DNA of 64,000 bases from Escherichia coli (GTDB lineage: Bacteria > Pseudomonadota > Gammaproteobacteria > Enterobacterales > Enterobacteriaceae). Below, in pieces: positions 23,427 through 25,961 of the stretch. Every line of letters begins with the position of its first letter. The first letter of the stretch is position 1. The DNA lies in assembly GCF_003334405.1 (NCBI RefSeq), contig NZ_QOWM01000006.1. One strand, given 5' to 3'. Below the pieces are notes generated by a model. That model was not told where the DNA came from, made no database searches, and saw only the letters and a program-made list of their open reading frames with translations. Made by a program: the position numbers and the translations under genes.

Positions 23427-25961
23427 ATGGCCGGGAATGACCGCGAGCCAATTGGACGCAAAGGGAAACCGACGCGTCCGGTCAAACAAAAGGTAAGCCG
23501 TCGTCGTTACGAAGATGACGATGATTACGACGATTATGATGACTATGAGGATGAAGAACCGATGCCGCGCAAAGGTAAGGGCAAAGGCAAAGGGCGTAAG
23601 CCTCGTGGCAAACGCGGCTGGCTATGGCTACTGCTAAAACTGGCTATCGTTTTTGCCGTGCTGATCGCCATTTACGGCGTTTATCTCGATCAAAAAATTC
23701 GTAGCCGTATTGATGGCAAGGTCTGGCAACTGCCTGCGGCAGTTTATGGCCGAATGGTCAATCTTGAGCCAGACATGACCATCAGCAAGAACGAGATGGT
23801 GAAGCTGCTGGAGGCGACCCAGTATCGTCAGGTGTCGAAAATGACCCGTCCTGGCGAATTTACCGTGCAGGCCAACAGCATTGAGATGATTCGCCGTCCG
23901 TTTGATTTCCCGGACAGTAAAGAAGGACAGGTGCGCGCGCGTCTGACCTTTGATGGCGATCATCTGGCGACGATCGTCAATATGGAGAACAACCGTCAGT
24001 TCGGTTTCTTCCGTCTTGATCCGCGTCTGATCACCATGATCTCTTCGCCAAACGGTGAGCAGCGTCTGTTTGTGCCGCGCAGTGGTTTCCCGGATTTGCT
24101 GGTGGATACTTTGCTGGCGACAGAAGACCGTCATTTTTACGAGCATGATGGAATCAGTCTCTACTCAATCGGACGTGCGGTGCTGGCAAACCTGACCGCC
24201 GGACGCACGGTACAGGGTGCGAGTACGCTGACGCAACAGCTGGTGAAAAACCTGTTCCTCTCCAGCGAGCGTTCTTACTGGCGTAAAGCGAACGAAGCTT
24301 ACATGGCGCTGATCATGGACGCGCGTTACAGCAAAGACCGTATTCTTGAGCTGTATATGAACGAGGTGTATCTCGGTCAGAGCGGCGACAACGAAATCCG
24401 CGGCTTCCCGCTGGCAAGCTTGTATTACTTTGGTCGCCCGGTAGAAGAGCTAAGCCTCGACCAGCAGGCGCTGTTAGTCGGTATGGTGAAAGGGGCGTCC
24501 ATCTACAACCCGTGGCGTAACCCAAAACTGGCGCTGGAGCGACGTAATCTGGTGCTGCGTCTGCTGCAACAGCAACAGATTATTGATCAAGAACTCTATG
24601 ACATGTTGAGTGCCCGTCCGCTGGGGGTTCAGCCGCGCGGTGGGGTGATCTCTCCTCAGCCAGCCTTTATGCAACTGGTGCGTCAGGAGCTGCAGGCAAA
24701 ACTGGGCGATAAGGTAAAAGATCTCTCCGGCGTGAAGATCTTCACTACCTTTGACTCGGTGGCCCAGGACGCGGCAGAAAAAGCCGCCGTGGAAGGCATT
24801 CCGGCACTGAAGAAACAGCGTAAGTTGAGCGATCTTGAAACTGCGATTGTGGTCGTCGACCGCTTTAGTGGTGAAGTTCGTGCGATGGTCGGAGGTTCTG
24901 AGCCGCAGTTTGCGGGCTACAACCGTGCGATGCAGGCGCGTCGTTCGATTGGTTCCCTTGCAAAACCAGCGACTTATCTGACGGCCTTAAGCCAGCCGAA
25001 AATCTATCGTCTGAATACGTGGATTGCGGATGCGCCAATTGCGCTGCGTCAGCCGAATGGCCAGGTCTGGTCACCGCAGAATGATGACCGTCGTTATAGC
25101 GAAAGCGGCAGAGTGATGCTGGTGGATGCGTTGACCCGTTCGATGAACGTGCCGACGGTAAATCTGGGGATGGCGCTGGGGCTGCCTGCGGTTACGGAGA
25201 CCTGGATTAAACTGGGCGTACCGAAAGATCAGTTGCATCCGGTTCCGGCAATGCTGCTGGGGGCGTTGAACTTAACGCCAATCGAAGTGGCGCAGGCATT
25301 CCAGACCATCGCCAGCGGTGGTAACCGTGCACCGCTTTCTGCGCTGCGTTCGGTAATCGCGGAAGATGGCAAAGTGCTGTATCAGAGCTTCCCGCAGGCG
25401 GAACGCGCTGTTCCGGCGCAGGCGGCGTATCTGACACTATGGACCATGCAGCAGGTGGTACAACGCGGTACGGGTCGTCAGCTTGGGGCGAAATACCCGA
25501 ACCTGCATCTGGCAGGGAAAACAGGGACTACCAACAATAACGTAGATACCTGGTTTGCGGGCATTGACGGCAGCACGGTGACCATCACCTGGGTCGGCCG
25601 TGATAACAACCAGCCGACCAAACTGTATGGTGCCAGCGGGGCAATGTCGATTTATCAGCGTTATCTGGCTAACCAGACGCCAACGCCGCTGAATCTTGTT
25701 CCGCCAGAAGATATTGCAGATATGGGCGTGGACTACGACGGCAACTTTGTTTGCAGCGGTGGCATGCGTATCTTGCCGGTCTGGACCAGCGATCCGCAAT
25801 CGCTGTGCCAGCAGAGCGAGATGCAGCAGCAGCCGTCAGGCAATCCGTTTGATCAGTCTTCTCAGCCGCAGCAACAGCCGCAACAGCAACCTGCTCAGCA
25901 AGAGCAGAAAGACAGCGACGGTGTAGCCGGTTGGATCAAGGATATGTTTGGTAGTAATTAA
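23427..25961 (+). CDS. mrcB: bifunctional peptidoglycan glycosyltransferase/transpeptidase PBP1b
   Basis: Track ORF trimmed to ATG at 23427 (844 aa, [15 protein letters not shown]...); TM anchor [22 protein letters not shown]; in-frame Met46 at 23562 (shorter isoform). Confidence 0.95.

Follow-up and report, generated by a model that had tools for sequence, protein, structure and literature searches.

Penicillin-binding protein 1b (PBP1b) ranks among the major peptidoglycan synthases and is targeted by beta-lactams. In E. coli K-12 its gene, mrcB (ponB, b0149), yields two isoforms, alpha and gamma (Kato 1984 and Broome-Smith 1985, as cited in PMC13423804), and the tail has been the subject of a deletion study (Chalut et al. 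2001, PMC94866, as summarised in PMC13423804). According to recent work, the long isoform reinforces the division site, to which PBP1b is recruited by the extension present only in alpha, probably via FtsA (Navarro, Vettiger et al., Nat Microbiol 2026; PMC13423804). In that work R6 is critical for the septal recruitment of alpha-PBP1b, and the isolated 1-63 peptide binds and competes at FtsA both in vitro and in vivo. A strongly acidic block lies inside the 1-60 and 1-63 peptides that were used. However, these peptides were used whole, together with an R6E mutant and never with a deletion of the acidic block, and the function is credited to the first residues of the tail without the block being separated out. 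The terms acidic, charged, linker and truncat- do not appear anywhere in PMC13423804. The sequence-only reading of the locus considered here had described the role of the acidic tail as not obvious. For the extension as a whole this has been overtaken by division-site recruitment, but the acidic block itself is singled out nowhere in PMC13423804.

Several other proteins resemble PBP1b in part. [quoted passage not shown] However, the FtsZ peptide is found at the C-terminus after a long neutral linker, and the likeness to PBP1b is confined to residues 1-14 and does not include the acidic block. An analogy has also been drawn in PMC13423804 to the class A PBPs of Gram-positive bacteria that bind GpsB, where a short disordered cytoplasmic N-terminus places or regulates the enzyme, as in PBP1b, and an Arg-rich N-terminal motif of the cytoplasmic minidomain docks on GpsB. 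The mycobacterial class A PBP PonA1 has a cytoplasmic N-terminal tail that is phosphorylated (PMC4483258). The partner is FtsA for PBP1b but GpsB for the Gram-positive PBPs, and phosphorylation is known for PonA1 and not for PBP1b. The two comparisons give no sign of an acidic block or of an internal second start in the GpsB-binding PBPs or in PonA1. GpsB is not known from E. coli.

At the level of the mRNA, mrcB is similar to infB and clpB of E. coli. In each case a single mRNA contains two in-frame starts, each with a Shine-Dalgarno (SD) sequence, and an N-terminal module is missing from the shorter product. The internal starts of all three genes were recovered together by Ribo-RET, i.e. retapamulin ribosome profiling (bioRxiv 10.1101/520783). 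However, the module removed in mrcB is a short disordered membrane-proximal tail and not a folded domain, and unlike in infB and clpB the internal SD is made of acidic codons.

We analyzed mrcB in a 64,000-nucleotide stretch of E. coli DNA (GCF_003334405.1, contig NZ_QOWM01000006.1; hereafter the window, to which all positions refer). The CDS of the alpha isoform occupies positions 23427-25961 of the plus strand and encodes 844 amino acids plus a stop codon (RefSeq b0149, NP_414691.1). The gene is preceded by hrpB and followed by a 747-aa ORF, which we take to be fhuA. The 801 nt around the mrcB start match K-12 (NC_000913.3) with the exception of one SNP in hrpB, and the 5' part of mrcB that was compared is identical. 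Pfam profile searches identify PF14812 (PBP1_TM) at residues 1-79, covering all 85 model positions (a 121-residue query gives E = 1.9e-26, the full-length protein 8.1e-25). The UB2H domain PF14814 (residues 113-197, E = 4.2e-25), which binds LpoB and separates PBP1b from PBP1a, follows the anchor and precedes the glycosyltransferase domain PF00912 (Transgly, residues 209-379, E = 4.3e-56), and the transpeptidase domain PF00905 (residues 473-714, E = 5.1e-24) is located C-terminal to PF00912. The tail and anchor, UB2H, the order of the two catalytic domains and the orthology to b0149 thus identify the protein as PBP1b, as the sequence-only reading had named it. mrcB was found in all 5426 of the 5426 complete E. 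coli genomes searched. The annotation of NC_000913.3 contains two CDSs at b0149, the second of which (YP_010051172.1, 'PBP-1Bgamma') begins 135 nt downstream, at Met46. The window thus represents the known K-12 case without any difference, with the same gene and the same two starts (23427 and 23562), and both starts had been correctly placed from the sequence. The charge-striped disordered tail of mrcB and its internal second start are real, conserved and previously documented.

The tail consists of three blocks of alternating charge followed by a predicted transmembrane helix. The primary start at 23427 is preceded by a GGAG SD (23416-23419, plus strand, as are all features below) located 7 nt 5' of the ATG, with an anti-SD duplex of -6.6 kcal/mol. 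Residues 1-14 (23427-23468) form the alpha-specific N-terminal peptide, the published FtsA-binding 'N-pep' with R6 (PMC13423804), and residues 11-28 (23457-23510) form a first basic stretch that gives residues 1-28 a net charge of +8. The acidic Tyr-punctuated block, also specific to alpha, extends from E29 to E44 (23511-23558) and has 13 D/E in 16 residues for a net charge of -13. The juxtamembrane basic Lys/Gly block, R48-G64 (23568-23618), carries +10 and is common to both isoforms; the Lys/Gly repeat proper extends from K49 to G64 (23571-23618). These limits agree to the base with those first read for the acidic block and the basic repeat. However, the basic repeat had been described as immediately following the acidic block, which is nearly the case except for the intervening P45-M46-P47-R48, and the two-part acidic-basic description, although both of its parts are present, had missed the first basic block. 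The three-block pattern, +8 / -13 / +10, is new in this analysis.

The charge segregation is extreme for this protein. A Das-Pappu-type charge asymmetry of 0.28 was calculated for residues 1-64, compared with 0.078 +/- 0.029 for 20,000 shuffles of the same residues (z = 7), none of which was as high as the observed value. Across all 844 residues of the protein, the most acidic (-13) and the most basic (+10) 16-residue windows both fall in the tail, and outside of it such windows range only from -5 to +4. In the AlphaFold2 model residues 1-62 are without secondary structure (pLDDT approximately 47-56), and a predicted transmembrane helix occupies residues 63-95 (23613-23711), with a mean pLDDT of 77-93 per 10-residue block across residues 61-90. 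Every PDB construct of PBP1b starts at residues 53-58, and entries 3VMA, 3FWL and 5FGZ match residues 53, 55 or 58 to 804. Residues 1-62 are thus predicted to be an intrinsically disordered cytoplasmic tail.

Both the acidic and the Lys/Gly block coincide with tandem repeats in the DNA. Tandem Repeats Finder (TRF) reports an imperfect repeat behind the DDY units at 23507-23554, with a period of 9 (4.0 copies, 77% matches, score 44) or 18 (score 54), so the DDY-type repeat seen in the first reading is real though imperfect. A period-6 repeat of GCAAAG behind the KG units is found at 23569-23593 (4.2 copies, score 36). Natural E. coli alleles differ in length in frame at both repeats. At the DDY repeat there are 3-nt (one GAT) and 9-nt (one DDY unit) variants, and at the KG repeat there is a 6-nt deletion (GGCAAA, one KG). 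This in-frame length variation within E. coli is new here.

The start of gamma, the Met46 ATG at 23562-23564 (CDS 23562-25961), is in frame with mrcB. It is preceded by an internal SD, GAGGA (23547-23551), contained in codons E41 (GAG) and D42 (GAT) and located 10 nt 5' of the ATG, with a duplex of -6.1 kcal/mol. The spacing of 10 nt is workable and close to the upper limit of what is usually seen. However, an anti-SD match as good as this one occurs upstream of approximately 14% of mrcB codon positions, and nine other in-frame start-capable codons of mrcB score -5 kcal/mol or better. Because such a combination is unremarkable in a single genome, support for Met46 comes from conservation and from published data. 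Ribo-RET detects initiation at the internal mrcB site in E. coli (bioRxiv 10.1101/520783) and in Salmonella Typhimurium (PMC11005335). The sequence-only reading had made initiation at Met46 the point on which its proposal would stand or fall, and these peaks bear it out, as the RefSeq gamma entry does for a shorter isoform that begins at Met46 and lacks the acidic block. Its statement that two PBP1b isoforms are established is likewise confirmed by the paired RefSeq CDSs and by PMC13423804, where alpha and gamma are reported at similar levels (Extended Data Fig. 8 legend). A literature search on PBP1B with Met46 returned irrelevant matches only.

The internal start is well conserved among Enterobacteriaceae. 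A start codon is kept at the block boundary in 74 of 80 species, of which 66 have ATG and 8 have GTG. All eight valine substitutions at Met46 are GTG; this is weak evidence, since ATG to GTG is a one-step change. Among the 63 distinct orthologous sequences that bear a start, 52-54 have an SD-core word (GAGG, AGGA or GGAG) beginning at -15 or -14, and in most of the species with a start the GAGGA itself is located at -15. In one of the species (L067) the start is GTG and the GAGGA lies one codon upstream. The glutamate codon at -5 is GAG in 52 cases and GAA in 4, whereas codons -3 and -2 are GAA in 76 cases and GAG in 25; these counts are drawn from related species, and shared ancestry overstates their independence. 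The synonymous bias toward GAG is limited to codon -5, with neighbours that prefer GAA, but GAG is also frequent at -16/-15 in many species. The remaining six of the 80 species have no start codon, and the GAGGA at the SD position is gone in all six; start and GAGGA have been lost together in Kluyvera (three species), in Pseudescherichia vulneris and in two Phytobacter-like genomes. Start and SD are thus conserved jointly beyond the needs of the protein, with the same caveat of shared ancestry. The GAGGA SD formed by the final codons of the acidic block is, to judge from codon usage, kept by synonymous choice; this point and the count of 74 species with a start are new here.

Other RNA and DNA features were considered near the internal start. 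When the E. coli sequence is folded by itself, a CCUC located 3' of the GAGG is predicted to pair with it (z = -1.8). However, a conserved mRNA structure masking the SD is rejected on the basis of the consensus fold of 21 species, which reaches -4.5 kcal/mol with no covariation. No internal promoter or terminator was found in 23100-23800, and matches to RNA families near the tail were sub-threshold hairpins only, all on an upstream palindrome.

We propose that mrcB encodes a two-start disordered tail in which the acidic block quite probably plays two roles, as the gamma ribosome binding site in the RNA and as an alpha-specific spacer in the protein. Translation from the ATG at 23427 yields alpha, whose 45-residue extension comprises the N-peptide, the basic stretch and the Tyr-punctuated acidic block. 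Translation from 23562 yields gamma, which retains the Lys/Gly-rich juxtamembrane stretch only. At the RNA level, conservation marks the codons GAG GAT GAA GAA CCG as the apparent gamma ribosome binding site, with GAGGA as its SD. At the protein level the block is most likely a polyanionic spacer, a flexible segment that would separate the N-peptide and basic stretch from the polybasic membrane-proximal anchor. The anionic inner leaflet would repel the block, holding the N-peptide off the membrane and leaving it free for FtsA at the division site. The function of the tail seems to rest on bulk composition and reach and not on charge balance or on any exact sequence or length.

The comparative record is consistent with a spacer of this kind. 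Residues 1-14 are nearly invariant in the 80 Enterobacteriaceae species (occasional N4D, E7K and changes at 12-14), and P8, I9, G10 and R11 are invariant across the Enterobacterales families; with R6 these are the residues of the published FtsA-binding peptide, all present in the mrcB of the window. The N-terminal stretch ahead of the acidic block has 28-30 residues and a charge of +7 to +9 in 80/80 species. The block itself is conserved in composition but varies in sequence and length, from 10-19 aa with -9 to -16 in the 80 Enterobacteriaceae to as many as 35 aa with -22 in other Enterobacterales. Families and genera with the three-block tail include Yersinia, Hafnia, Erwinia, Pantoea, a Sodalis-like symbiont and Providencia. 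As far as the sampled sequences indicate, this tail reaches across Enterobacterales; the homologues in PMC13423804 clustered in Enterobacteriaceae.

The free drift of sequence and length between species would also suit a block with no protein function of its own, i.e. a translated ribosome binding site or leader in which GAN codons were expanded by replication slippage into neutral filler. The imperfect tandem repeats and the E. coli alleles with length differences of a single GAT, GGCAAA or 9-nt DDY unit agree with this explanation, as does the absence of the block from distant PBP1b tails and from a divergent homologue (P0001, 64% identity) that has an EPIG-like N-peptide, which shows that the block is not obligatory for that peptide. 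However, we consider neutral filler unlikely, as all 80 Enterobacteriaceae species and each of the other Enterobacterales families sampled have a block with a net charge of at least -8, and the block is three to seven times the length that an SD requires. Furthermore, and newly seen here, all six species that have lost the start and the GAGGA retain the block (e.g. L063, DDEYDDDYDDEYEDE), which argues that the protein itself is under selection. Y34 is nearly invariant in the Enterobacterales alignment, and the aromatics in the block are more evenly spaced than chance would give, with a longest D/E run of 4.8 on average compared with 6.5 expected and below expectation in 92% of 65 acidic blocks.

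The extreme charge pattern could instead reflect an intramolecular electrostatic switch, in which the acidic block folds back on a flanking basic stretch and masks either the juxtamembrane anchor, affecting lipid association, or the basic stretch and N-peptide, as an auto-inhibition of FtsA binding until a signal arrives. We find such a switch quite improbable. Charge-balancing co-evolution of the blocks is rejected by the 80 species, where acidic charge shows no correlation with basic charge (r = 0.20 and -0.12), and across the order the tail as a whole carries a net charge anywhere from -5 to +10, which leaves no conserved stoichiometric pairing. In addition, the AlphaFold model shows neither a compact nor a confident arrangement of the tail, and the FtsA binding and competition already seen with the isolated 1-63 peptide (PMC13423804) speak against auto-inhibition.

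The conserved aromatics within the acidic run raise the prospect of a docking site for a basic partner, such as a divisome tail or a nucleic-acid-binding surface, or of a site phosphorylated by a bacterial tyrosine kinase. The AlphaFold-multimer screen published for residues 1-60 lists Wzb (a phosphotyrosine phosphatase) and Ung (uracil-DNA glycosylase) among its 3/3-model matches, and the nucleic-acid-binding proteins Mug, the Csp family and PriB are among its 2/3-model matches. However, that screen is noisy, given that the validated partner FtsA appears in 1/3 models with a pDockQ of 0.283, and both docking and modification are very doubtful. An obligatory phosphorylation is argued against by several lineages in which F, H, I, V or M replaces the tyrosine, and the literature on mrcB and phosphotyrosine contained nothing relevant that we found.

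Lastly, it is very unlikely that the position of the block and its tyrosines reflect constraints at the ribosome, whether in a weak form, where a lead of approximately 29 residues and the Tyr spacing would make a risky polyacidic stretch translatable, or in a strong form involving intrinsic ribosome destabilisation. In the strong form, which is extremely improbable, the acidic nascent chain with Pro45 would destabilise some alpha ribosomes one codon before Met46, and their abortion would feed or unmask gamma initiation and tune alpha:gamma, e.g. with Mg2+; if true, the balance of division-site and general PBP1b activity would shift with Mg2+ or with factors that stabilise the ribosome. D/E/P-rich nascent chains do abort translation in E. 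coli (10.1101/2021.02.02.429294; PMC11282234), and the 13 D/E in 16 residues are followed by P-M-P (P45 and P47), with the block ending one codon before the internal ATG. However, the effect fades once 20-30 residues or so fill the exit tunnel and is suppressed by bulky residues (same sources), whereas this block starts at residue 29, with 28-33 residues before it in 20/21 aligned Enterobacterales tails (start at 29-34; 38 residues and a start at 39 in one), and tyrosines interrupt its D/E runs. The similar levels of the two isoforms are also unfavourable, and a literature search returned no paper tying mrcB to ribosome destabilisation.

The spacer reading can be set against PBP1b tails outside the order. 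The 133 distant tails compared have a median length of 23 aa and a median charge of +7; in 117 of them no 12-residue window contains more than one D/E, and essentially none has an acidic block, a contrast with Enterobacterales that is new here. Other bacteria tolerate tails as basic as +32, so that a basic tail is not harmful per se. The gamma tail, at 19 aa and +10, appears to resemble this generic short basic type, so the alpha extension looks like an order-specific add-on. It may be an Enterobacterales addition upstream of a possibly ancestral start.

These findings repeat the known two-isoform arrangement and leave the current understanding of the system unchanged. They narrow the question to why the alpha-only extension has a conserved polyacidic Tyr-punctuated stretch. 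A synonymous GAG-to-GAA change should reduce gamma and leave alpha untouched, and Kluyvera and the Phytobacter-like genomes are predicted to be natural alpha-only species. The natural length variants of E. coli provide a further handle and were present in 4 of 60 evenly spaced rows, which corresponds, as a rough estimate only, to 5-7% of genomes.

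The open reading frame beginning at ATG 23427 is mrcB (ponB), encoding PBP1b. Window positions 20757-28424 contain hrpB, an 844-codon ORF, and a downstream 747-aa ORF that we take to be fhuA. The assignment to mrcB follows from the Pfam domains of the ORF (PBP1_TM, residues 1-79; UB2H, 113-197; glycosyltransferase, 209-379; transpeptidase, 473-714), from the presence of the region in all 5426 complete E. coli genomes, and from its identity with K-12 MG1655, which is complete across the 801 nt of the 5' region compared except for one SNP in hrpB. This SNP lies at window 23110 (C in the window, A in K-12). 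A mechanical ORF list begins mrcB five codons further upstream at TTG 23412 (window 23412-23426). The RefSeq annotation and the position of the Shine-Dalgarno (SD) sequence GGAG (23416-23419) support ATG 23427 as the start.

The N-terminal tail of PBP1b consists of three charge blocks, residues 1-28 (net +8), 29-44 (net -13) and 45-64 (net +10). The sequence-only reading had described an acidic block followed by a basic one. Both are present; however, residues 1-28 are basic as well. The positions it assigned to the acidic block (E29-E44, 23511-23558), the Met46 ATG (23562) and the basic Lys/Gly (KG) block (K49-G64, 23571-23618), all on the + strand, were exact on re-reading. The charge segregation over residues 1-64 is extreme and beyond chance, with an asymmetry of 0.28 compared with 0.078 +/- 0.029 after shuffling (none of 20,000 shuffles as high), and no 16-residue window elsewhere in the protein is as acidic (-13) or as basic (+10) as those in the tail. 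The DDY-type tandem repeat proposed at the DNA level was recovered by Tandem Repeats Finder as an imperfect one of period 9/18, and a separate imperfect repeat of period 6 underlies the KG units (scores 36-54 overall). An AlphaFold2 model built from a 21-sequence alignment shows residues 1-62 without secondary structure (pLDDT ~47-56) and a helix at residues 63-95, confident over 61-90. Solved PBP1b structures all begin at residues 53-58. Because GAT-GAN codon junctions spell ATG, an ATG-rich 40-codon ORF (23515-23637, + strand) spans the acidic and basic blocks in the +1 frame relative to mrcB, with no evidence of use.

The two-isoform arrangement of mrcB is already known and annotated, which confirms the earlier observation and supports its interpretation that a shorter form begins at Met46. 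In RefSeq NC_000913.3, b0149 carries two CDSs, the second of which ('PBP-1Bgamma') starts 135 nt downstream, at Met46. Retapamulin ribosome profiling, which bears directly on the proposed check for initiation at Met46, recovered the internal start in E. coli, among three cases known from earlier work (10.1101/520783), and also found it in Salmonella, where the paper explicitly notes that the long form carries a basic stretch with an acidic sequence after it (PMC11005335). A 2026 study found division-site enrichment and activity limited to the long (alpha) form, and showed that the alpha N-terminal peptide and FtsZ compete for FtsA, an effect abolished by R6E; the acidic block was never isolated on its own (PMC13423804). 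It has been shown, mostly by others, that two in-frame starts yield alpha and the short (gamma) isoform and that the extension unique to alpha directs PBP1b to the site of division.

Within one genome, finding an in-frame ATG behind an SD-like sequence is unremarkable, as an equally strong upstream anti-SD match occurs at ~14% of mrcB codon positions. We compared one genome per species at 80 loci, nearly all labelled Enterobacteriaceae. The codon at the acidic/basic boundary is ATG in 66, GTG in 8 and not start-capable in 6 of the 80 species. Of the 63 distinct start-bearing sequences, 52-54 have an SD-core word (GAGG, AGGA or GGAG) beginning at -15 or -14. Glu at codon -5 is encoded by GAG in 52 cases and GAA in 4, though GAG is common at codons -16/-15 too; at -3 and -2 GAA is preferred (76 : 25). 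The six start-less species (three Kluyvera, Pseudescherichia vulneris and two Phytobacter-like genomes; L059, L063, L068, L071, L078 and L079) all lack GAGGA at its usual position, and have GAA where codon -5 is Glu. In five of them, no in-frame codon from residue 2 up to the membrane helix is start-capable; in P. vulneris (L059), an in-frame ATG encodes residue 33, within the acidic block. Since they are kept together and lost together across species, the start codon and SD behave as one selected unit that was lost a few times, with the qualification that the species share ancestry. Conservation shows the gamma ribosome-binding site to lie in the last acidic codons; a comparative fold found no conserved RNA structure around the internal start. 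The six start-less species should not make gamma from the boundary, and in most of them the long isoform should be the sole product, providing natural alpha-only cases.

The acidic block is still present in all six, and its retention makes it separable from the SD role. In every one of the 80 species the tail opens with residues 1-14 almost unchanged and a basic stretch, together spanning 28-30 residues with a charge of +7 to +9; the acidic block is 10-19 residues long (net -9 to -16, 1-3 Tyr), and a basic juxtamembrane stretch carries +8 to +10. Other Enterobacterales also carry the block, often longer, among them Yersinia (21-26 residues), Hafnia (35, net -22), Providencia (27), Erwinia, Pantoea and a Sodalis-like symbiont. 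Among aligned Enterobacterales tails P8, I9, G10 and R11 are invariant and Y34 nearly so, the boundary residue is Met or Val in 20 of 21 sequences, and the net charge of the tail lies between -5 and +10. The longest D/E run averages 4.8 compared with 6.5 expected (below expectation in 92% of 65 blocks), and the non-acidic residues, mostly Tyr, are spaced more evenly than chance. By conservation, the block is maintained independently of the SD role and is selected as protein.

A search of 1.84 billion representatives gave 133 usable outgroup tails among the best 150 matches listed. Among these tails the median length is 23 residues and the median net charge +7; 117 of the 133 have at most one D/E per 12-residue window and only one has six or more. 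With 19 residues and +10, the gamma tail resembles a generic outgroup tail. The alpha extension is, on this sequence comparison, an Enterobacterales feature, and may have been added upstream of a possibly ancestral start. A divergent PBP1b, the representative P0001 (64% identity, N-terminus MSHYGHEPIGQKNKKIHSKLHTSIKPKHSKK), has an EPIG-like N-terminal motif in a 31-residue basic tail without acidic block or internal Met; its K/N/I-rich composition suggests a reduced, AT-rich source genome.

We are highly confident of gene identity, isoforms and SD taken jointly. The role of the acidic stripe is the only point beyond the known system, and here the comparative data offer direct experimental handles. 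We tentatively propose a mechanism that we consider somewhat more likely to fail than to hold, in which the acidic block would serve as a flexible polyanionic spacer and be repelled by the anionic inner leaflet. It would keep the FtsA-binding N-peptide (residues 1-14) and the first basic stretch from folding down onto the membrane or the polybasic anchor, leaving the N-peptide free to reach FtsA. Strict charge neutralisation is unlikely, as acidic and basic charges do not co-vary among the 80 species. Rival readings are that the block is neutral filler, or that it acts as an intramolecular switch. It could also be a docking or phosphorylation site, and the top predicted AlphaFold-multimer partners of residues 1-60 include the phosphotyrosine phosphatase Wzb and several nucleic-acid-binding proteins (Ung, Mug, the Csp family and PriB); these are noisy leads at most, since in the same screen FtsA itself was supported by just one model of three (pDockQ 0.283; PMC13423804 supplement). 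Published criteria weaken the case for a translational role, since acidic nascent chains stop translation mainly when they follow fewer than ~20-30 residues and have no bulky residues close by. At least 28 residues precede this block and Tyr interrupts it, an architecture that looks made safe rather than risky.

Length differences among natural E. coli alleles are all in frame and amount to one GAT (one Asp), one GGCAAA (one Lys-Gly) or 9 nt (one DDY unit). Roughly 5-7% of complete genomes carry a length variant, a rough figure taken from position in an evenly spaced ranking. Such variation fits a picture in which short repeats slip and small changes in length are tolerated.

The hrpB-mrcB intergenic region contains a GC-rich imperfect palindrome (23244-23328) with 27-nt arms (23250-23276 and 23295-23321) that are 81% complementary, and nested 10-nt perfect inverted repeats. 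No Rfam family matched it above threshold. A 501-nt query was found at 6612 places in 5428 records, at most four per genome and including a 36-nt plasmid match, and the element looks like a dispersed repeat. The intergenic segment is variable, since in many E. coli lineages the alignment begins only at window ~23342. A second low-complexity tail, rich in Gln, occurs at the PBP1b C-terminus (residues ~800-844, window ~25824-25958); structure constructs end at residue 804. Residues 800-843 give a weak, sub-significant Pfam match to FtsA_C (PF11983, E = 0.011), which is probably a composition effect.
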